Below, in pieces: positions 39,620-51,567 of a stretch of DNA of 64,000 nt. Source of the DNA: Candidatus Pacearchaeota archaeon (GTDB lineage Archaea > Nanobdellota > Nanobdellia > UBA10117 > JAFCGI01); the NCBI GenBank assembly GCA_017608235.1, contig JAFCGI010000003.1:44146-108145 (forward strand), given 5' to 3'. A model generated the notes under the pieces. It worked only from the letters and a program-made list of their open reading frames with translations. It did not search any database and was not told the origin of the DNA. Numbering within the stretch: the first letter of the stretch is position 1; the number at the start of each line of letters is the position of its first letter. Both the position numbers and the translations under genes were made by a program.

Positions 39620-39904
39620 TTAGAATGAATAATAATTTTCAAAAAGTATTTTAGATTTGGAGTTCTTATGCTTTGTTTTTTCTTTTTCTCGCTCCTGTAA
39701 ATGAACATGGTATTTTAAGTGACAAGTATAACAGATTGCTTTTAGATTATCTAAAGTATTTCTACCTCCTTTTGAAATTGGAACTATGTGATGTGCATAT
39801 AATCTTATGCGCGTCTTTCCACAATCTTCGCAAGTATAGTTTGCTAGCTCTTTTACGCGCTTACTTAAATCTTTCCAATAAGGCCATTTATTGCTATAAT
39901 CCAT
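39620..39904 (-). CDS. HNH endonuclease (small, stand-alone)
   Basis: CEDCGKTRIRLYAHHIVPISKGGRNTLDNLKAICYTCHLKYH is an intact HNH/zinc motif. Length 94 aa. Confidence 0.65.
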   Translation of the reverse strand: MDYSNKWPYWKDLSKRVKELANYTCEDCGKTRIRLYAHHIVPISKGGRNTLDNLKAICYTCHLKYHVHLQEREKEKTKHKNSKSKILFENYYSF

Positions 39905-39956: not shown

Positions 39957-40478
39957 CTAATTTAATTCCATATGAAAAATTCTTTTTTTATTTTGGATTT
40001 GTTTATCTTTATCTAATATGTCCAAAGAGAATTTTGTTTGAGTTACTCCTAAGTCTTGCAGAAAGCAAAGACATTGATAATAGATGCTATTTTTAGATTC
40101 TTCTAAATTATAAAGATTTGAAACTGTTAGATTTAGTAATCTTTGTGCTACTAAATTCTCAAGATCTTGTTCTGATATTGCATTGTAATTACTATATGCT
40201 ATTAATTTATGTGCATCGCTTGGGAATATCTCATAATTTATGGAATATACTATAGTTGTATTAGCATTGACTTTATAATTTAGTCTTAAATTATGTTCTC
40301 TTCTATCTATAAATGCTATTTTCTTTTTAAAAAGATAAGATAGATTGCTCTCAGTATAGTGATTATTCAGAGGACCTTTAATTTCATCTTTTGTAATTAT
40401 ATATTTAGTATTTGGATTATTCTGGAGGTACTTTTTAAAGGCCCTCTTTCTAACATTTATTACTTGCATAAGATACAT
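39957..40478 (-). CDS. Hypothetical protein (last gene of the 8-gene operon)
   Basis: 173 aa with no recognisable motif. Start lies 3 nt after the AAA ATPase stop. Confidence 0.4.
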   Translation of the reverse strand: MYLMQVINVRKRAFKKYLQNNPNTKYIITKDEIKGPLNNHYTESNLSYLFKKKIAFIDRREHNLRLNYKVNANTTIVYSINYEIFPSDAHKLIAYSNYNAISEQDLENLVAQRLLNLTVSNLYNLEESKNSIYYQCLCFLQDLGVTQTKFSLDILDKDKQIQNKKRIFHMELN

Positions 40479-40480
40479 GG

Positions 40481-41677
40481 TTATTTATACTCATAGACTA
40501 GATTTACAAGATCTTGTCCTAATCCTCCCTCACCATTCTTTTTAATATGGTCTTTAGCTTCTTTGATCCAATCTAAGAATACAGATGTGTTAGGGTGATA
40601 AAGTGCATATTCTAAATCTCTGTTGTTAATTGGATCTAAGCTATTAATATCATTATCTTTATTTCTAGCTAATGCTAGTTCTGCTGCAATATTACAAATA
40701 TTTTCAATATCTTTTCCAGTATATATACCAAAGTTATTTGATGCTTGTGCTAATAATTTTAAGTTAACATTTGAACTAATTTTACTTTTTTTAAGTTTAA
40801 CTTTATAAATTTCCTCTATAGCTTTAATATCTGGTTGTGGGACAAATAGTGTTCTATTGAATCTTCTTCTTACTGCAGGATCTATCTTCCAGATATAGTT
40901 TGTGGCACCTATTACAATTGCTGCATGATTATTTTCTTTTATATATTCATCAAAATCAGATAATGAAGTTAGTAGCTGATTAGTTTGGGACTGCGCATAA
41001 TGGGATCTAGTCTTGGTTCTCCTGCCTGCTATTGCATCTATTTCATCTAGTAATACTATACATGGAGAGTATTCTTTTGCTTCTTCAAAAATTGCTTTTA
41101 TGTTTTTTTCTGTATTACCTACATATGGATCTAGTATTTCTGCTAAAGACCTATGAATAAAATATGCTCTTGCTTCACCTGCTGCTGCTTCCACACTAAA
41201 AGTTTTACCACATCCTTGCGGGCCATGAAGCAATATGCTTCCTCCGCTAGATAATCCAAGAGCTTGCCTCTTTTGGCTATAAGTTTGATCTCTTAGTGGA
41301 GTTATGATCATATTATAGATTTGTTCTTTGAAGTAATTCATGCCTCCAATGTCTCTAAAAGTTGTTTTTGGTATTTCTGGCTTTCTGAAGTTTTTCTCAT
41401 AGTCTAGATTTCTTCTTGCTTTAGACTTTCTCTGATTTTTTGGAAATGCGGAAGGTTTATCATCTTCTACATAATATATAGCTTCTATCTTTAATGCTCT
41501 TTTTTTAAGATTTAGTGCTTTTTTTTTAGCATCAAAATCTAAGCTTTCTTTGAATCTTTTACTATATTCAGCTACTGCTGCTTGGTAATTTATTAGTGCT
41601 CCATATAGATCGCCTTTTTTTTCTTTACGCCGTGCTTGAATTTCTAATCTGCGTGCAGAGTCAATCAACTTAATCAC
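40481..41677 (-). CDS. MIT-domain AAA+ ATPase of the Vps4/CdvC (meiotic-clade) type
   Basis: N-terminal MIT-like three-helix region RRLEIQARRKEKKGDLYGALINYQAAVAEYSKRFKE…ALKIEAIYY (compare Vps4 …GNYEEALQLYQHAVQYF…). Walker A LLHGPQGCGKT. Walker B IVLLDEIDA. GATNYIWKIDPAVRRRFNRTLFVPQP matches the Vps4 GATNIPW.LD.AIRRRFE.RIYIPLP. Confidence 0.85.
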   Translation of the reverse strand: MIKLIDSARRLEIQARRKEKKGDLYGALINYQAAVAEYSKRFKESLDFDAKKKALNLKKRALKIEAIYYVEDDKPSAFPKNQRKSKARRNLDYEKNFRKPEIPKTTFRDIGGMNYFKEQIYNMIITPLRDQTYSQKRQALGLSSGGSILLHGPQGCGKTFSVEAAAGEARAYFIHRSLAEILDPYVGNTEKNIKAIFEEAKEYSPCIVLLDEIDAIAGRRTKTRSHYAQSQTNQLLTSLSDFDEYIKENNHAAIVIGATNYIWKIDPAVRRRFNRTLFVPQPDIKAIEEIYKVKLKKSKISSNVNLKLLAQASNNFGIYTGKDIENICNIAAELALARNKDNDINSLDPINNRDLEYALYHPNTSVFLDWIKEAKDHIKKNGEGGLGQDLVNLVYEYK

Positions 41678-41742
41678 CTCCTAGCTATAAAATTTCTAAA
41701 TATATAAAATCAGATTCCAAAAGTTCTGACTCTGGAATCATT

Positions 41743-42360
41743 TTACTCTTCTTCATTTGCTAACGAATTTGATCTGTTCTGTACTGGTCTATATATTTGG
41801 TTTATAAAATCATCCATATTCCCTTCAGCATATTGTGGATCATTATCTAGCTGTTCTCTTTCATAAAGAAGTTCTTGCGAATACTCAGATAGTTCTCTCA
41901 TATTCCCTGCATGGTCATATTTTCTTGAGTTACTAATTATACTAAATAGGCTTTTTTTAGGGATTATGCGTCTGCTATGTTTTGCAACTTTGATTAATTC
42001 TCTATCTGCTTTTTTTCCTATAATACCTGCTTCTGCTCTTGCTGTAGCCTCGCATACAATTAAAAATCTTTCAGCCATTAGATCCATAGCAATTCTTGCT
42101 TGCTCATATATCTCTGACTTAACATTAAGCTCTGCTTCTCCTATCTTTTTATCATTATATTTTTTAGCAGCAACTAATGCTTCTTTTCGCTTTTGTCTAT
42201 AATCCTTACATGCTTCTTCATATAGTGCTTCTATTTTAGTTCTTGAGTTAGTAATGGTATCTATTTTTTTCATTTCCCTATGTTCTTTCCTTATTTTTCT
42301 ATTCTGTTCATAACCTAATGCTTTGAGTGCTTTTTTTCTTCTCATTTTAATAACCTCCAT
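41743..42360 (-). CDS. Small charged alpha-helical protein (candidate ESCRT-III/Snf7/PspA-like; speculative)
   Basis: 205 aa. The N-terminal half is basic (MRRKKALKAL…RKIRKEHREMKK). It is predicted helical with heptad character, and the C-terminus is acidic (…DDFINQ…ANEEE). The ORF overlaps neighbours on both sides. Confidence 0.4.
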   Translation of the reverse strand: MEVIKMRRKKALKALGYEQNRKIRKEHREMKKIDTITNSRTKIEALYEEACKDYRQKRKEALVAAKKYNDKKIGEAELNVKSEIYEQARIAMDLMAERFLIVCEATARAEAGIIGKKADRELIKVAKHSRRIIPKKSLFSIISNSRKYDHAGNMRELSEYSQELLYEREQLDNDPQYAEGNMDDFINQIYRPVQNRSNSLANEEE

Positions 42361-43529
42361 CCTCCCCTACTTTCTTTATAGAGGAAAAGATCATGAAGAA
42401 TATCTGTGGCTATGCTGCCTCTGATGTTAAACTTTTTCTCTAGATAATTTGATTTTATATCAAAGGCATCTACATTATTATAGAGAAAACTTGCAAATGA
42501 ATCTGAGGAGCTTGATCTTTTTATCCAAGTAGAAAAATATTCATTTACTTTGTTATGCATGCAAACTAGCTTATTATTTGTAAGGTTTAATAAGAATATA
42601 GAAGATGTTTCAAATTCATTATTTTCAAGTTTACTTAGATCCAAATTTCTACTGAATTTATTTGTTAGAAGTATTTCTAATTTATATGTTAAAAGGTCTT
42701 CATTAGCTCTTAATATTAGTGAGTTTAAATCTGCATTTTTGGCTTCAGATACATACTTGACAGAAATTGCTAATGGAAACTTTCTATTAGGTCTTAGTGT
42801 TAAACCATAATTATCTATTTCTAGTTGTTTTTGGATTTGTTTTCTTTTTGGTTTTTTATATATGTTTGGAGGAATAAATTCTATTGGAGTTTTAATTAGT
42901 TTATATTGCAAATTTTTAATATATGTTTTTGCAAGATCTGGTAATGGCTCTAAGTCTTTTTTTGCTAAAGTTATAGTTTTATTATATATTGAAGTATTAG
43001 GTTCTATTGTTTCTGAGTTTCCTAATCTATAGAATACGGATTGGATGTTTTCTTGCTCTTTTAGGAGCCAAGATTTATTTAGTATATCTAGGTAAGATTC
43101 TAAACTCTCTAGTTCTGAGTTTAAATTGTTTTTAAATTTTAGTTCTGTAGCTGCTTCTGTAAAATATTTTGATAGCTCCTTATCAAAAAAGAAGATATAG
43201 TTTCTGATATTTTGTGCAAGAGCTATATCTTGTAAATGATAATTTTTTTCTGGAGTAGAGATTAGTTTATCTTGAGTATCTATGTTTTTCTTTAAGAGGA
43301 TTGCCTTGTTTAGAGTTGTTTTTATATTTTGAAAATAAGGGTCATTGCTATCTAAATGTTCAGCCATTAGAGATTCTAGATCTGAAATTGTTTGATTTAA
43401 GCTTAAAATTATATTGGATCTTGCATAAGATGCTTTTCTCTCATATCTTGAGATTACTGCCTCCCAAATATGTGGGAGTATCTTAAATCCAATACTTGTT
43501 ATATTTGTTATAGGTTCAATAGTTGTCAT
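42342..43529 (-). CDS. Hypothetical protein (operon member)
   Basis: 395 aa with no known motif. Tightly packed in the operon. Confidence 0.4.
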   Translation of the reverse strand: MTTIEPITNITSIGFKILPHIWEAVISRYERKASYARSNIILSLNQTISDLESLMAEHLDSNDPYFQNIKTTLNKAILLKKNIDTQDKLISTPEKNYHLQDIALAQNIRNYIFFFDKELSKYFTEAATELKFKNNLNSELESLESYLDILNKSWLLKEQENIQSVFYRLGNSETIEPNTSIYNKTITLAKKDLEPLPDLAKTYIKNLQYKLIKTPIEFIPPNIYKKPKRKQIQKQLEIDNYGLTLRPNRKFPLAISVKYVSEAKNADLNSLILRANEDLLTYKLEILLTNKFSRNLDLSKLENNEFETSSIFLLNLTNNKLVCMHNKVNEYFSTWIKRSSSSDSFASFLYNNVDAFDIKSNYLEKKFNIRGSIATDILHDLFLYKESRGGWRLLK

Positions 43530-43765: not shown

Positions 43766-45055
43766 CTAGGGTTTATATTTTTTGTACATATTTAGTTTTT
43801 GTATTTTTTCTTGCAGATCTTCATACTTATCAAAATCTTTGTAAATATTAATTCTTGTATTTTTTACACCACTATTTTTTAATAATTTTCCTATAATCAA
43901 TATACTTGACATTCCATAGAAATCCATATCTGTTAAACAAATATTTGTTTCTCCTAAATAAAAATCATATAGATGGTATACAAAATATGCTATTAATATA
44001 TCGTATGTAGTTATTCCCCCCATACCTCTTTTGCTTTTTCTTGCATCTTCTTGGCGAATCTTACGCCTTATACATCTAGTACCTGGAATTTTTTTAAGAA
44101 CTATATCTATAGCACGTCTATTTTTCTTAAAGCCTTCTAAAAAATCTAAAATCGATATAGTATAGTCTCTAAATCTATAATTAACTACTACACTAAGATC
44201 ATTCTTTACGTGAACATACTTAAAATTATTTTTATTGGTATGAATCACTAACTGGGATAAATATTCTGTTATAATTAGATTTTTTTTATAATGCTCTGCT
44301 TCTTCTTTTGCAAAGTTTAAAAAATCTGATATTATTTCTTTTTGTAATTCATAAATTTCTTTTTGTGACTTATAATTTAACTTTGGATTATTTATTCTTT
44401 CTTCTAAATTAGAAGAATATAGTCTAGAAGGATGTAGTTTTTTTCTTTTTTTAATAAGCGACTTTAATATTTCCTCTTGTCTGTGTGCAGAATCATAATT
44501 GGGATCAATTTCAATAGATTTTCTAATATAATTGAGCGCTTCTTCATACCTCCCAGACCATTTTAAAGCTAGTGCTTTATTATAAAACAAAATAGGATTA
44601 GGTAGTTTTTCTAGAGTTAATGCTTTGTCATAGTATACTATTGCTTCTTTATATTTTTTAAGTTCAGTAAGTATTTTACCTTTTAAATTATAATACTTAG
44701 AATTATTTGGGTCTATTTTAATAGCTTTGTTAATTATTTCTAATGACTCCTGATGATTGTTGGCTTCCCTTACTTTCTTATAATATGCATTTGCAAATTG
44801 TGGATCTATAGATATAGATGGAGCGAGCTTTTTGGCAGAATCCATATCTTTTAGGGCGCTATCTGTTTGATTTAATTTTAAAAGAATTAATGCTCGCTGA
44901 TGGTATGCTCTAGCACTTTCAGAATATTCTGATATGTAGTTATTGATTATTCTCAGAGCTTTTTGATATTCTTTAAGCTTATAAAGTGTTCTTGCTTCTG
45001 CAAACCAGGCATCTTGTTCTATATCCATATTAGTTCTTCCAAGCTTTTTATACAT
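43766..45055 (-). CDS. TPR-repeat protein with a C-terminal domain of unknown function
   Basis: Five or more 34-aa TPR-like units (…AYHQRALILLKLNQTDSALKDMDSAKKLAP…, …NAIKIDPNNSKYYNLKGKILTELKKYKEAIVYYDKALTLEK…). Length 429 aa. Confidence 0.55.
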   Translation of the reverse strand: MYKKLGRTNMDIEQDAWFAEARTLYKLKEYQKALRIINNYISEYSESARAYHQRALILLKLNQTDSALKDMDSAKKLAPSISIDPQFANAYYKKVREANNHQESLEIINKAIKIDPNNSKYYNLKGKILTELKKYKEAIVYYDKALTLEKLPNPILFYNKALALKWSGRYEEALNYIRKSIEIDPNYDSAHRQEEILKSLIKKRKKLHPSRLYSSNLEERINNPKLNYKSQKEIYELQKEIISDFLNFAKEEAEHYKKNLIITEYLSQLVIHTNKNNFKYVHVKNDLSVVVNYRFRDYTISILDFLEGFKKNRRAIDIVLKKIPGTRCIRRKIRQEDARKSKRGMGGITTYDILIAYFVYHLYDFYLGETNICLTDMDFYGMSSILIIGKLLKNSGVKNTRINIYKDFDKYEDLQEKIQKLNMYKKYKP

Positions 45056-47777
45056 TTTCTCTTACCTTGCGATAACAATCGTAAGCTTCTTTAAATTTAC
45101 CTTGTGCTTCGAGTACTTGACCTTTTTGATAGTTTGCTTGTTTATTTTCTGGTTCTAGATATAAAATTGAATCTAAGGTGCTCATTGCATGAGCATATAG
45201 TCTTCGATTGCTATAATACTTTGATATAAAAATTGCTTTATCTAAGTACCCTAAAAAATCCGAATAATAATGAAGTCTGTGCTTTCTTTTATTTTTAACA
45301 AGCTGCCTTTTCATTAGGCTCATAATTGCTGCGCCTATTGCAAATTCTAAATAAGAATAATTTACCAATCCTCCTATTAGTAATACTTCTAATATGTTTT
45401 TTGGATAGATTTTTCGTTTTAATTTCTTAATTTTAGGTGTATGTTTGACTAAAGTATCTAATGCTGTTCTTTTGAAATATCTTTTACCAAGTTTTTTATT
45501 GATTTCTTCAACACTTACTGGTTCCTCATATATTTTTCTCTCATTTAGACCTTGTCGTACAGATATATTTATTTTAGTATCATCTGCAGTATATGTTATT
45601 CTATAATTTTTAAATCTTAAAGTCATACTATTTTTATATATTTGCTCTATCGAAAATGCAGACTTATATAGCCTTGCTTCCATTAATACTAATCTTAATA
45701 TATTTTTAGAAGAAAATCTACAGTTTCTTAGCTTTGATATTTTAGTCTTTGGCAATATTATGTTATATTGCTTTAGAACTGCATCCATATGAATCGGGCT
45801 TAAATCTAGAGCTTTTTTTGGGTCAGTTTTAAAAAGGTACCAAGCCTCTGCATTATATCTGTTTAATTCTAAAGCGCGAGTATATGATTTTATTCTTTGA
45901 TCAGATTCTTGGCGACTTGCTAGATCTAAATAGGCATTAGCTAGTTCTGAAGAAACTTCAGAATTTTTTGCTAATGCTATTGATTTCTCAAATAAATAAA
46001 TTGCTTCCTCTAAATTTTTAGAAGATTTCCGTTTATTATATATTTTATGCCCTAGTTCATAGAATGCTTCTGCTGCAATCTTTTTGATTTCTTTATTAGA
46101 AGAATAACTTAGAGCTTTTTCGAAATGTTTGATGGCTTTTCTATGTTTTTTCTTATTTAGTACTTTTTTAGCTTGTCTAAAATGAATTTGGGAGATATAG
46201 CTTTCTGCAGCAAAATTTTTGTAAGGTAGTATTGCTTCCAAATAGTTTAGGGCAGACTTATACTTTTTTTTATTTATAAGCTGTTTTGCTAGGCTAAACC
46301 AAATTTTTGGGCTGATATCATTATTTTTCTTTAGATAAATACGCTTAGCTCTCTTACTAAACTTATATGCTTTTTTATGCTGTCCATCTTTTTCTAATGC
46401 TAATGCCTTATAATATAAAGCCTCATAATTCTTAGAATCTAGTTCTATAGCCTTTTCAGAGTTTATGATTGCTCGTTTATAACTATTTAATTCAATATTT
46501 GTTTTAGCTTCTAAAATTCTTAGCTGAATTTGATTTGGATTATAGTCTAATGCTCTATTTATTAATCTTAATTTTCGTTTCAAAAAGATACTATTTTTTT
46601 TATCTTCTGGTTTTGTTTGCAAATTTGCAAAACTAAAATAGGCATCTGCTAGATCTGGTTTTATTTCATTTGCTCTATCTGGTGCAAATACTAATATTTC
46701 TTCAAGAATTTTTATTCTTTCTTTGAGGTTAGTTTCAGTTTTAGAAATGCCTATTCTTGCGTTTATAGAAAAAGGATCATATTTTAATGTTTGATCAAAG
46801 AATTTTTTAGCTTTTTTAAGATTTTTTTGTCTTAGAGCTAACTTTCCTCGTATCTCTAAAGTATATGGGTCTAAATTTTGTTCTAGAAGTTCTTCTAATT
46901 TCATATCTGCAGACGTATCAGCAAATTCATCAATAGAATTATTATTTGAGAATTGAAGCTTACTAATTTGCTCGCTAAAAAATAAATTTAGTGCTGTAAG
47001 CTGATCTATTTTTTTATAGGCTAAGTCTATGAAGTTATCTATTTTTTTATTGCATCTTTCTTTGTTAATCTTTGATTTATTATTTGGCGATAACTTTTTA
47101 CTTAATTCGTAATGTTTTGATATAATTTTTTTTTCTTTATTTTTAAGTTTAACTATATCTAAAATTACTTGAAGATAGTCTAGAACTTCTTTTTGTTTTT
47201 CTAAAAAATCAGATTGTATGTCTTGATATTTTATACTTAGTGCATTACTTAACTTGTATATTTTCTTATTCCAAGAAATATTTGACTTTAAATCTTTTTT
47301 TAATTGTCTTAGATTTTTAGCTTTTAGTATTTTTCTTACTTTTTGATCTTTTTTTGCAACCAAAGATGTTACAAATGGATTATTAAAATATTTAGTAACT
47401 GTATAATTTTGGCTGTCTTCTGGCATAATTATTTCTTGTCCAAATGATAATGCAGTATTTAGAAAAATCTCATTTAGGTCTGAAAATAAATGCTTATATA
47501 GTTCATAACTATGAGCTAATATATGTGCATTGTCTAGTATTTTAAATTCTTTTGCACCTAGATTAGCACTCTCTTCTAATATATCAAGCATATATAATGC
47601 TTTATTTAGTTTTTTATCTCTTCGTCTATTATAGAAGTTTAAATATGATTGATATTTTATATCTTGTTTTGCTATATTTTTTTTAGTAATCTTTTGTAAT
47701 CTAGCTTTGATTTTTTTTAGATTCTTCTTTCTACGCTTATTTTTCTTTGCTTCAGATATAAATTCCTTCCTATTCAT
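45048..47777 (-). CDS. Large TPR-repeat protein (909 aa) with an N-terminal Lys-rich coiled-coil region
   Basis: Many TPR units (…YEALYYKALALEKDGQHKKAYKFSKRAKRI…, …AEAWYLFKTDPKKALDLSP…). The C-terminal region has a hydrophobic segment LLIGGLVNYSYLEFAIGAAIMSLM. Confidence 0.55.
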   Translation of the reverse strand: MNRKEFISEAKKNKRRKKNLKKIKARLQKITKKNIAKQDIKYQSYLNFYNRRRDKKLNKALYMLDILEESANLGAKEFKILDNAHILAHSYELYKHLFSDLNEIFLNTALSFGQEIIMPEDSQNYTVTKYFNNPFVTSLVAKKDQKVRKILKAKNLRQLKKDLKSNISWNKKIYKLSNALSIKYQDIQSDFLEKQKEVLDYLQVILDIVKLKNKEKKIISKHYELSKKLSPNNKSKINKERCNKKIDNFIDLAYKKIDQLTALNLFFSEQISKLQFSNNNSIDEFADTSADMKLEELLEQNLDPYTLEIRGKLALRQKNLKKAKKFFDQTLKYDPFSINARIGISKTETNLKERIKILEEILVFAPDRANEIKPDLADAYFSFANLQTKPEDKKNSIFLKRKLRLINRALDYNPNQIQLRILEAKTNIELNSYKRAIINSEKAIELDSKNYEALYYKALALEKDGQHKKAYKFSKRAKRIYLKKNNDISPKIWFSLAKQLINKKKYKSALNYLEAILPYKNFAAESYISQIHFRQAKKVLNKKKHRKAIKHFEKALSYSSNKEIKKIAAEAFYELGHKIYNKRKSSKNLEEAIYLFEKSIALAKNSEVSSELANAYLDLASRQESDQRIKSYTRALELNRYNAEAWYLFKTDPKKALDLSPIHMDAVLKQYNIILPKTKISKLRNCRFSSKNILRLVLMEARLYKSAFSIEQIYKNSMTLRFKNYRITYTADDTKINISVRQGLNERKIYEEPVSVEEINKKLGKRYFKRTALDTLVKHTPKIKKLKRKIYPKNILEVLLIGGLVNYSYLEFAIGAAIMSLMKRQLVKNKRKHRLHYYSDFLGYLDKAIFISKYYSNRRLYAHAMSTLDSILYLEPENKQANYQKGQVLEAQGKFKEAYDCYRKVRENV

Positions 47778-48760
47778 TCTTCTTCAGTAGCTTTTTCGCA
47801 CAGCGAGTCCAGCGCATAATAAATAGCTTCTTCTTCAAAATCTTCTCCAATCATTGAGTCTAAAAATTTATCATAGAAATCTGTGTGAATACTGCTTAGA
47901 TCTAATGTATCTGAAAGTACAAAATCTCTTGCCCTATTTAAGATAAGCTTGTTAAGTTCCATTAATTCATTTATTCTGTAATATGAGAAGCTGCAAAATT
48001 CAGTAATTATTTTAGTTTCTAGATTTCTATTATACTTTGCATCTTCACTATCTTTGCTACATAATTTGGCATCAGCTTCATAAAAAGAGATTAATACTTC
48101 TGCTTCGTCTAGCTTTTGATAAATCCTTTTAATAACTTTTTTTCTATAACTAATAACTTTTTTTTGCAGATTTATAAATTTATTATGTAATCTCTTAGTC
48201 CTTTCTTCACTTTCTAGCATATTTGTTGGTATAATTCTATTCCATTTTAAACTAGATTTTAAGAATTTTCTAATATATTTAAAATTAATATCTTCTTTTT
48301 TAAGTTCTGGCTTATTTATATTTAAGGTAAAGAAAGCATCTTTGTATTCATTAAGCAATATATTATCTTTTGTATCATACTTTAATTCCTTAAGGAATGA
48401 TTCTGTTAGATAACTTAATTCCTCTTTTAAATTATTAGTCCATATAGGAGCATTATTATCATAATTAAATACATATCCATCAACCCATGTTCCTACTGGG
48501 TGCGATATGTTAGCACCCCTTTTTGCATTATCTGAGATTTTGCTATTTAGTTTAATTATATTTTCAAAACACTTATCTAGCTGCTTATAATATTCACTTC
48601 TAATTTCTTTATGTTTTTCTGCAAAAGAATTAAATTTTGTTCTTGCTTTTTTTGCTTTTTTTTTTCTTTTATTATATTTTTTACTCTCCATATTTAATCT
48701 TTTTCTAGTTTTAGCTAATTGACTCATAATATCACCTTTGGAGATCTTTAGATATATCAT
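47774..48760 (-). CDS. Hypothetical coiled-coil protein (operon member)
   Basis: 328 aa. Lys-rich N-terminus. No known motif. Confidence 0.4.
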   Translation of the reverse strand: MIYLKISKGDIMSQLAKTRKRLNMESKKYNKRKKKAKKARTKFNSFAEKHKEIRSEYYKQLDKCFENIIKLNSKISDNAKRGANISHPVGTWVDGYVFNYDNNAPIWTNNLKEELSYLTESFLKELKYDTKDNILLNEYKDAFFTLNINKPELKKEDINFKYIRKFLKSSLKWNRIIPTNMLESEERTKRLHNKFINLQKKVISYRKKVIKRIYQKLDEAEVLISFYEADAKLCSKDSEDAKYNRNLETKIITEFCSFSYYRINELMELNKLILNRARDFVLSDTLDLSSIHTDFYDKFLDSMIGEDFEEEAIYYALDSLCEKATEEE

Positions 48761-50744
48761 ACATTTCAGACTGTAGCCTGTCTAAAGTTACATTATATCT
48801 TCTTAGAGTAGAAACATATTTTGTGATTCCCATGCTAATTTGTAGATTGTCTTTTGCAGCATATAATATGCTATTTACTTTCCGAATCTCTTTTATTTCG
48901 CATGTTATTGCCTGAACTATAGATTTAAGATTTGAAATTAAATCTTCATGCAATTTTTCTTTGGCAGAACTATATGATTCATATTCTTCTTTTTTTTGTT
49001 TGGTCTCATAATATATATATTTGGAAAATTTTTTTCTATGTTGTTTTATTTTTTTAAGTTCTTGTTTTATAATTTTAGATATAGTTTTTTTTCTCTTTCT
49101 CAGAATTTGTTTCTTATTAAATCTAATGCCTAACTTAGATAATTCATTCCAAATCTCAGGCTCATTCTTTCCATGAATTAAATAATTTTGGATATGTTTT
49201 ACTTTTTCTTTTTTATTTTTAGTTAAGTATATGAGTTCCAAAAATGTTTCTGCTTTTGTATTAAATGTGTTAAAATTATTTGGCTTTATTTCTTTAGAAA
49301 GTATTGTTAATGCTGAATATGCGTTTATATTATATGCTTCAGCTTTAATCTTATCCTCTACTACTTCTGCAAGAGTTATCTGTGCATGAGCTAAGGATAG
49401 TACTATATCATTATAGTCTGATTGTGCTTTTTCTTTTGGGAAAGGGCTTTCTTCTGCTTCAACCTTCTGTTTAGTATTTTCCTGCGCATTCAATAGACCC
49501 TTCATTCCACGTTCAAGAAGATCTAAAAGTTTTGTTTTTTCGACTTTACTTAAATTTTGAGAATAGTTTCTTAGAAATCCAGATAGTTCTGAAATATAAA
49601 ATGCTGCTATACTAGTAATTTCTAATTTTGAGTTAGAAATAACTAATAAGTCATCTGCTAATTCTATAAGAGTAGTTCTGAAATATTCTTTTACTTTTTC
49701 ATAATTATGATGCTTATTTTCATTTATTTCTGACAATTTAAAGTTAATAGCGCTTCTTAAGGTATTTACATAATTAACTACTCTCTCAAGAATTTCTTGA
49801 TCAATTTTAAGATCTTTTCCAAAATTAAATAAGTGCGTTTTTGGAATTTTCTCTGGTATTGTTCCTCTTTTTATACTTAGCGCCTCTTGGAATAAGTCTG
49901 CATGCGAATGAAATTCCTCAGGGCGGAATAAATACCTAGTGCATTCTTTTTCTAGCTCTATAAGATTTTTCTTAGGTATTACTATATCTGTAGATGCTAT
50001 GTAATATGAATGAGCCATTCTGCAAATAGCTTTAGATAATTCTGCTACTGCTTCTTCTCTTTTTTCATCATCATCTTTATTTTTTAGGATGTCTGCTAAG
50101 CTTGAAAGAGTATATCTTGTATATATCAAAAATAATTCGAATGCCTCATATCTTGGGATATTTATTTTTGGCAGATCTTCAAATTCTTCAAATACATCAT
50201 AGCCCATTAAAATTTTATGGCAATTCCAAATATAAGAGAAAAGGAATTTACTAGCTAAACCTCGCCAATTATTAATTTGTTTTTTAGATCTACCGATTGC
50301 TCCACTTTTAAATGCATCTATATTTTTAGGATTTATGCTATTCTTATCTCTTACCCATATTTGCGCCTTAACTTTACATCCGAGGTCTGCATTTATCTTT
50401 TCAAGATCTTCATTCAGCTTATCTTCTAAAGTGTTAATTTCTGTTTCTATGTCTTTAATTTTGTTAAATTCAATTGATCCATAATGTTCCTTATATAGTT
50501 CAGGATTATCTTTGTATTCCTCTAAGGCATTATATACATTTGGATTAACTAAGAAATCTATATCAAAATCAGAATATTTATTCATGTCCCCTGAATAAAT
50601 GCTACCAGAACTAAATGCGCTATGGCAATAAAAGCAAGAAGCATCATCATCTTCTATTGAAAATTTAGAGTCCATAAAGTAATTGCAAAATTTGTCTTCT
50701 AGAAAGCTTGGAATATCTTGAATAGTTTGGATAGGTTTTGACAT
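48732..50744 (-). CDS. Large protein with an N-terminal Pol-beta-superfamily nucleotidyltransferase signature and a long helical C-terminal region
   Basis: SAFSSGSIYSGDMNKYSDFDIDFLV fits hG[GS]x9-13DhDh (GS + 10 aa + DFDID). Preceded by a CFYCHS Cys/His cluster. A candidate third acidic residue lies in IWVRDKN. Length 670 aa. First gene of the operon. Confidence 0.55.
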   Translation of the reverse strand: MSKPIQTIQDIPSFLEDKFCNYFMDSKFSIEDDDASCFYCHSAFSSGSIYSGDMNKYSDFDIDFLVNPNVYNALEEYKDNPELYKEHYGSIEFNKIKDIETEINTLEDKLNEDLEKINADLGCKVKAQIWVRDKNSINPKNIDAFKSGAIGRSKKQINNWRGLASKFLFSYIWNCHKILMGYDVFEEFEDLPKINIPRYEAFELFLIYTRYTLSSLADILKNKDDDEKREEAVAELSKAICRMAHSYYIASTDIVIPKKNLIELEKECTRYLFRPEEFHSHADLFQEALSIKRGTIPEKIPKTHLFNFGKDLKIDQEILERVVNYVNTLRSAINFKLSEINENKHHNYEKVKEYFRTTLIELADDLLVISNSKLEITSIAAFYISELSGFLRNYSQNLSKVEKTKLLDLLERGMKGLLNAQENTKQKVEAEESPFPKEKAQSDYNDIVLSLAHAQITLAEVVEDKIKAEAYNINAYSALTILSKEIKPNNFNTFNTKAETFLELIYLTKNKKEKVKHIQNYLIHGKNEPEIWNELSKLGIRFNKKQILRKRKKTISKIIKQELKKIKQHRKKFSKYIYYETKQKKEEYESYSSAKEKLHEDLISNLKSIVQAITCEIKEIRKVNSILYAAKDNLQISMGITKYVSTLRRYNVTLDRLQSEMYDISKDLQR

Positions 50745-50982: not shown

Positions 50983-51567
50983 CTAAGACATTTCTTTGCA
51001 GTATTGTTTTGCTCTTTGTAATAATTTGCTCAGGAATTTTTTTCCTGCTTTTGTCTTGAATCTCGAAGCTTTTTCTTTTTCAAAAAAGTCTAAAAACCTA
51101 ATGTAGTCTTTTTTAGAAAATGTAGGAGTTACTCTATCTACATTAATTTGTCCTAAGCTATCTGCTTCAAAAACTAGTTGCCCATCTGGAGAAGAAGTTA
51201 TTTTATCTAAATTATCATGAGTTCCTACTAAATAGACTATCTTTTCAATTTCTTCTGTAGAGTATTCTCTAATTTCACTTAATATTATTTTAGATAATTT
51301 TATTCCATTATCCATTTGCTTTTGTTTTAATTGTTCCTGAGATTCAAAACTAAGATTTTTTTTATTGAGAATGTTTGCTCCTCCAATATCATGTAAATAC
51401 ATTGTAGAAATTAGAATCTTTGGATCTCCTTCTTCATAAACCAATAGCTTTTTCATCCAATAGACTGTAGCCATTGTGTGTGGTATATCCCAGTTAGGGC
51501 GAGCTTTATCTAAATATTTTATGGCTTCATTCTTTAGTTTTTCCTCTAGTCCTGCATTTAGATCCAT
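50983..51567 (-). CDS. HD-domain protein
   Basis: H…STMYLHDIGG (HD)…GTHDNLDK…D pattern. Length 194 aa. Directly upstream (same strand) of the operon promoter region. Confidence 0.6.
   Translation of the reverse strand: MDLNAGLEEKLKNEAIKYLDKARPNWDIPHTMATVYWMKKLLVYEEGDPKILISTMYLHDIGGANILNKKNLSFESQEQLKQKQMDNGIKLSKIILSEIREYSTEEIEKIVYLVGTHDNLDKITSSPDGQLVFEADSLGQINVDRVTPTFSKKDYIRFLDFFEKEKASRFKTKAGKKFLSKLLQRAKQYCKEMS

Follow-up and report, generated by a model that had tools for sequence, protein, structure and literature searches.

The window analysed here, the whole stretch of 64,000 nucleotides, carries on its minus strand a cluster of eight genes with short or overlapping junctions: p670 (48732..50744), p328 (47774..48760), p909 (45048..47777), p429 (43766..45055), p395 (42342..43529), p205 (41743..42360), an AAA ATPase gene (40481..41677), and p173 (39957..40478). 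The proteins of the cluster are database singletons; those beside the ATPase are otherwise orphan, soluble, and for the most part helical. p670 has an N-terminal nucleotidyltransferase-like motif (GS..G......SDFDIDF), and its N-terminal fragment matches NTP_transf_2 at E 0.007, below the Pfam cutoff. p909 has a basic N-terminus (23% identity to p328 over 272 aa; E 0.05, weak and borderline), TPR blocks, and one weakly hydrophobic segment (795-822); p429 has N-terminal TPRs (TPR_2, 84 bits) and a C-terminal half without known family. A BLAST comparison of the cluster proteins with one another, made to detect paralogues, found the TPR-TPR similarity and the borderline likeness between the N-terminus of p328 and that of p909, and nothing else. 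p429 and p909, in neither of which clear transmembrane helices were found, are the sole TPR proteins among roughly 40 of the 57 window ORFs scanned with Pfam. p395, upstream of p205, gave no family match, no PDB match beyond chance, and no relative in a scan of metagenome contigs; p173, which begins 2 nt past the stop codon of the AAA gene, gave no family match and chance matches only in a PDB sequence search. Snf7, PspA, CdvA, and CdvB_HTH were absent from the neighbours and from the roughly 40 window ORFs scanned. GC content is 0.26-0.28 over 42-50 kb versus about 0.31 elsewhere in the window; a search of the cluster ends turned up no integrase or flanking repeats of the sort that mark a mobile element, and no tRNA. 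An HNH gene (39620..39904) lies downstream of the cluster and an HD gene (50983..51567) upstream.

The two open reading frames to which the first-pass annotation had drawn attention, those of the ATPase and of p205, are both on the minus strand with the coordinates that it gave them. The longest ATPase frame (398 aa) opens at GTG 41677; the likelier start is TTG 41668 (395 aa, the length in the public annotation), with AGGAGG 8 nt before the TTG, and inspection of the start-site sequence places the GTG within the SD of the TTG start. The protein comprises a predicted MIT-like three-helix bundle at its N-terminus (41453..41677; residues 1-75), the AAA nucleotide-binding domain (40838..41236; residues 148-280; PF00004, 120.7 bits), the AAA lid domain (40646..40771; residues 303-344; PF17862, AAA_lid_3, 26.7-31 bits), and a C-terminal tail (40484..40645; residues 345-398), all on the minus strand. 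Walker A (GPQGCGKT), Walker B (VLLDEID), pore loop 1 (YVG), and the SRH arginines are all intact in this single classic AAA domain, and the sensor-1 N (of GATN) and arginine fingers RRR (RRRF) can be read from the translation. The string GATNYIWKIDPAVRRRF...FVPQP, quoted earlier as a meiotic-clade signature, is indeed found in the protein; as a signature it is diagnostic in part only, since the W in ATNxxW occurs also in the bacterial relatives, and the one trait held in common with the meiotic clade is the absence of the Pro-Gly pair from the SRH.

The fold of the N-terminal domain was assessed on an unbiased single-sequence AlphaFold model of the first 80 residues (pLDDT 83). The top 22 Foldseek PDB matches to this model are MIT domains exclusively, archaeal CdvC MIT among them, and the katanin N-domain is among the best fold matches; against two MIT structures of archaeal CdvC, 2w2u and 2v6y, its superposition gives 1.1-1.4 A. 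In sequence searches the CdvC-MIT HMM scored the domain above all 2000 shuffles; Pfam gave no MIT match in the protein, and comparison of the N-terminus with PDB sequences gave chance matches only. The MIT plus AAA architecture that had been proposed is thus borne out by Foldseek and superposition, and weakly by the CdvC-MIT HMM: the model confirms the N-domain as MIT-like, with a predicted fold closest to the MIT domains of Vps4/CdvC.

The motor domain and tail resemble in sequence a bacterial single-domain AAA family, linked to TPR proteins, and not Vps4/CdvC. Scored with family HMMs, the core reached 197.6 bits for the bacterial TPR-linked AAA, 184.1 for CDC48 D2, 162.3 for all meiotic proteins, and 128.2, the lowest, for CdvC; the best per-domain phmmer scores were 138-149 bits for bacterial proteins versus 100-136 for CDC48 and 94-111 for CdvC. 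The NCBIfam CdvC model scored the protein at 134.2 bits against a cutoff of 650. Two neighbour-joining trees were built with few references, leaving out the euryarchaeal Vps4 clades of PMC11188069, and in these, where the query sits on a long branch, 91.5% and 95.5% of bootstrap replicates recovered a monophyletic meiotic clade that excludes the query; the query grouped with the meiotic clade in 15% and 0% and with CdvC in 5.5% and 0%. In the second tree its sister was bacterial single-AAA proteins in 98.5% of replicates. The tail carries the motif LDWIKEAK...GEGG..DLV, common to the bacterial TPR-linked AAA proteins; the bacterial tail HMM gave it 12.6 bits, a score reached by none of 2000 shuffles, and the CdvC tail HMM -0.2 bits (rank 151 among 2000 shuffles). 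Pfam gave no match to Vps4_C (PF09336). On scores, tree, and C-terminal tail together we reject a CdvC orthologue, and the Vps4/CdvC-like, meiotic-clade motor of the first-pass annotation is not upheld, the bacterial family HMM scoring best and CdvC lowest, and the neighbour-joining trees leaving the query outside that clade; such a placement of the AAA protein is one of the two findings that the first-pass annotation had itself named as refuting its reading in combination. A TRIP13/HORMA reading was likewise rejected, the similarity being of a kind generic to AAA proteins. Two segments of the query, ILD..xGNTEKNIKAIF and RFN..FV, are also present in proteins L001 and L064; a scan of genome contigs with the AAA found distant bacterial AAA genes only, and tblastn against phage records found generic FtsH-like AAA genes only.

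In the bacterial family, a TPR protein gene lies directly downstream of the AAA gene (5 of the 5 loci examined), and the TPR partners have 3-5 transmembrane helices; examples are WP_331764019.1 (Streptomyces anthocyanicus) and WP_271289561.1 (Actinomyces oris), with further loci in Glutamicibacter and Bacillus. The AAA protein and membrane TPR protein form a conserved and apparently undescribed two-gene module, and to this module the archaeal ATPase is, as judged from its sequence, related. The pore-loop context ILD..xG[NE][ST]EKN and the tail W[FI]xxA[KR]...[EG]GG..DL are held in common, core similarity is best with this family, and TPR genes are present in the cluster of the query too. The differences are as follows: the N-domain of the bacterial family is TPR-like (Pfam TPR_19/TPR_20), with no sequence similarity to the MIT-like domain of the query (an actinobacterial N-domain HMM gave no signal on the query, nor the CdvC-MIT HMM on actinobacterial N-termini); the bacterial proteins keep the Pro-Gly pair in the SRH, which the query is without; and the bacterial TPR partner is immediately downstream and membrane-anchored, whereas the TPR proteins of the window are soluble and encoded 2-3 genes upstream.

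p205, for which an ESCRT-III homology had been proposed, is encoded by a 205-aa longest frame on the minus strand; the likelier start is ATG 42345 (200 aa, the start used in the public annotation), with GGAGGT 7 nt upstream. The protein is by sequence a strict orphan: a word-indexed set of 5.8 billion proteins and a full phmmer search of 1.84 billion representative proteins returned p205 itself only. Pfam, NCBIfam, PADLOC, and PHROGs gave no match, Pfam giving zero families at E<=10, with Snf7 (PF03357) and PspA (PF04012) among the profiles searched; PDB sequences gave chance matches only, and the CdvB HMM showed no signal (-1.5 bits, rank 715 of about 1180). Little weight attaches to the absence of Pfam matches, since genuine CdvB proteins are on record as matching Snf7 weakly or not at all. 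The single-sequence AF2 model of p205 is poor (pLDDT 51.2) and all helical (helices 2-68, 76-110, 116-132, and 150-172), and Foldseek matches to this low-confidence model were at E>=3, with ESCRT-III not among them. When the acidic C-terminus ...EGNMDDFINQIYRPVQNRSNSLANEEE was read for MIM1 and MIM2 patterns, (D/E)xxLxxRLxxL(K/R) and the proline-rich (L/V)Px(V/L)P, no canonical motif was seen. The charge polarity taken earlier as the mark of ESCRT-III/PspA proteins is there, with +0.098 per residue in the N-terminal half and a net -7 in the last 40 residues, but it is not distinctive: p205 ranks 4th among 50 window ORFs, and the neighbours p173 and p328 have the same pattern. Adjacency, helicity, and this common charge pattern are all that speaks for homology with ESCRT-III.

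The 19-nt overlap that had been placed between p205 and the ATPase gene is really one between the longest form of p205 and the stop codon of p395; with ATG 42345 the overlap with that stop is a 4-nt ATGA, and p205 is apparently coupled translationally to p395. The SD sites and the ATGA overlap argue for real, co-expressed genes. p205 and the ATPase gene are 65 nt apart (41678..41742, minus strand), a distance that grows to 74 nt if the TTG at 41668, the likelier start, is used, and the spacer holds a hairpin then a T-run, an AT-rich TATA-like stretch, and an SD. One terminator-like site was found in it; the spacer folds no more stably than shuffles (z -0.11), and the hairpin is not significant as a regulatory element.

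On balance we lean, with modest confidence, towards a classic single-ring AAA unfoldase, probably active and specific to its lineage, that combines an MIT-type N-domain with the motor and tail of a prokaryotic single-AAA family and is not a Vps4/CdvC orthologue. We infer that the ATPase would act as a hexamer, docked by its MIT-like domain, possibly aided by the TPR proteins of the cluster, on a short peptide motif of a cluster-encoded protein; the YVG pore loops would then thread and disassemble the docked protein, or its assembly, using ATP. p205, a real orphan protein, may be a client or adaptor of the ATPase. Several points weigh against this reading: the whole cluster is a singleton; the position and solubility of the TPR proteins differ from those of the bacterial partners; the N-domain is unlike the bacterial TPR-like one, and the SRH lacks the Pro-Gly pair as in the meiotic clade; and the trees are of the limited kind described above, with a long query branch. 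If the reading is true, an MIT domain sits on a non-Vps4 AAA motor in an archaeon, and the design of MIT plus unfoldase arose or was shuffled more than once. Archaeal Vps4 is operationally defined by its MIT domain (PMC11188069), and a non-Vps4 MIT-AAA protein bears on the presence of that domain as a criterion. The general importance is limited for now because the locus is a singleton.

The alternative that survives best, although we consider it unlikely, is that the genes are adjacent without a shared function, the ATPase being transcribed alone and serving housekeeping clients in the manner of a solo Vps4 or CDC48 paralogue, with p395 and p205 an unrelated orphan pair. The 65-nt spacer with its hairpin, T-run, and TATA-like stretch, and the SD that the ATPase gene has of its own, are consistent with separate transcription; both Thermococcales and Hodarchaeota have Vps4 paralogues of the solo, long-branch kind (PMC11188069), and at a singleton locus a conserved neighbourhood is not demonstrable. 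Set against these are the location of all eight cluster genes on one strand with short or overlapping junctions, and a spacer hairpin that is not significant. The TPR genes of the cluster, moreover, mirror the TPR linkage of the closest bacterial relatives, which argues against mere adjacency.

The reading of the first-pass annotation, a minimal Cdv/ESCRT-like pair in which p205 would be a hyper-divergent ESCRT-III/PspA polymer and the MIT-AAA protein a Vps4-like disassemblase docking through MIT-MIM contacts, is unsupported by the present analysis, and we regard it as quite improbable. In archaeal ESCRT systems the ESCRT-III gene usually adjoins vps4 and its product can be only weakly PspA-like (PMC11188069), the N-domain fold is closest to Vps4/CdvC MIT domains, and p205, of about 200 aa, has a predicted structure made up wholly of helices, with a long pair in its N-terminal part, and is basic at the N-terminus and acidic at the C-terminus; the weakness of the negative Pfam result also tells in its favour. 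On the other side, p205 gave neither a profile signal nor homologues from which a profile could be built; its model is of low confidence with no ESCRT-III match; no canonical MIM was seen, and ORFs next to it have the same charge polarity; core and tail of the AAA protein fall outside Vps4/CdvC; and the 65-nt spacer leaves p205 and the ATPase gene uncoupled. A variant in which p205 is a hyper-divergent ESCRT-III/PspA member forming, in an uncultured AT-rich archaeon, a minimal membrane-remodelling pair with an ATPase recruited from the TPR-linked AAA lineage, and not from Vps4, is very doubtful; if true, the pair would be a previously unseen, independent assembly of an MIT-AAA and polymer system. 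Very unlikely, finally, is a conflict or defence island, in which the low-GC cluster would serve against viruses or in some other conflict and the AAA protein would be the sensor or effector ATPase: PADLOC IetA (113.9 bits), NCBIfam IteA (107.7 bits), and the viral AAA family phrog_3757 (147.8 bits) all score on the ATPase, the NTase-like motif of p670, the HNH and HD genes, and the low GC at 42-50 kb could fit, and orphan content is typical of fast-evolving islands, but the IteA score is far under its cutoff of 510, the IetA similarity is generic (bacterial TPR-linked AAA proteins score the same or higher), no IetS protease was found in the cluster with PADLOC or Pfam, no PADLOC model matches the TPR proteins that accompany the bacterial relatives, the cluster ends show no integrase, flanking repeats, or tRNA, and HNH and HD are weak or generic links.

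Among known systems, the AAA protein IetA of IetAS defence is a single classic AAA protein of similar length; IetAS was rejected because of the below-threshold score and the lack of a protease beside the query. p205 is similar to ESCRT-III/Snf7/CdvB and PspA-Vipp1 in its size of about 200 aa, predicted helicity, charge distribution, and MIT-AAA neighbour; it differs in being without sequence signal, homologues, canonical MIM, and winged-helix extension, and in having a model that is not confident. CDC48/VAT D2 gave the second-best family HMM score and is 33-40% identical to the query, which in contrast carries one AAA domain only and is without both the double-psi barrel N-domain and the SRH Pro-Gly pair. 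With Vps4/CdvC (NF041006; arCOG01307) the ATPase shares an MIT-type bundle, a linker of about 25 residues, and one classic AAA domain in the same order, an SRH likewise without the Pro-Gly pair, and, for A. hospitalis CdvC, 36% identity across the core; nevertheless, of all the family models tried on the core CdvC gave the lowest score, the two tails are unrelated, and true CdvC loci carry CdvA and CdvB, neither of which was found near the query. Katanin p60 and spastin are eukaryotic and belong to the meiotic clade, outside which the query core falls; their example shows that a single AAA motor bearing an N-domain of MIT type can work on clients that are not ESCRT-III.

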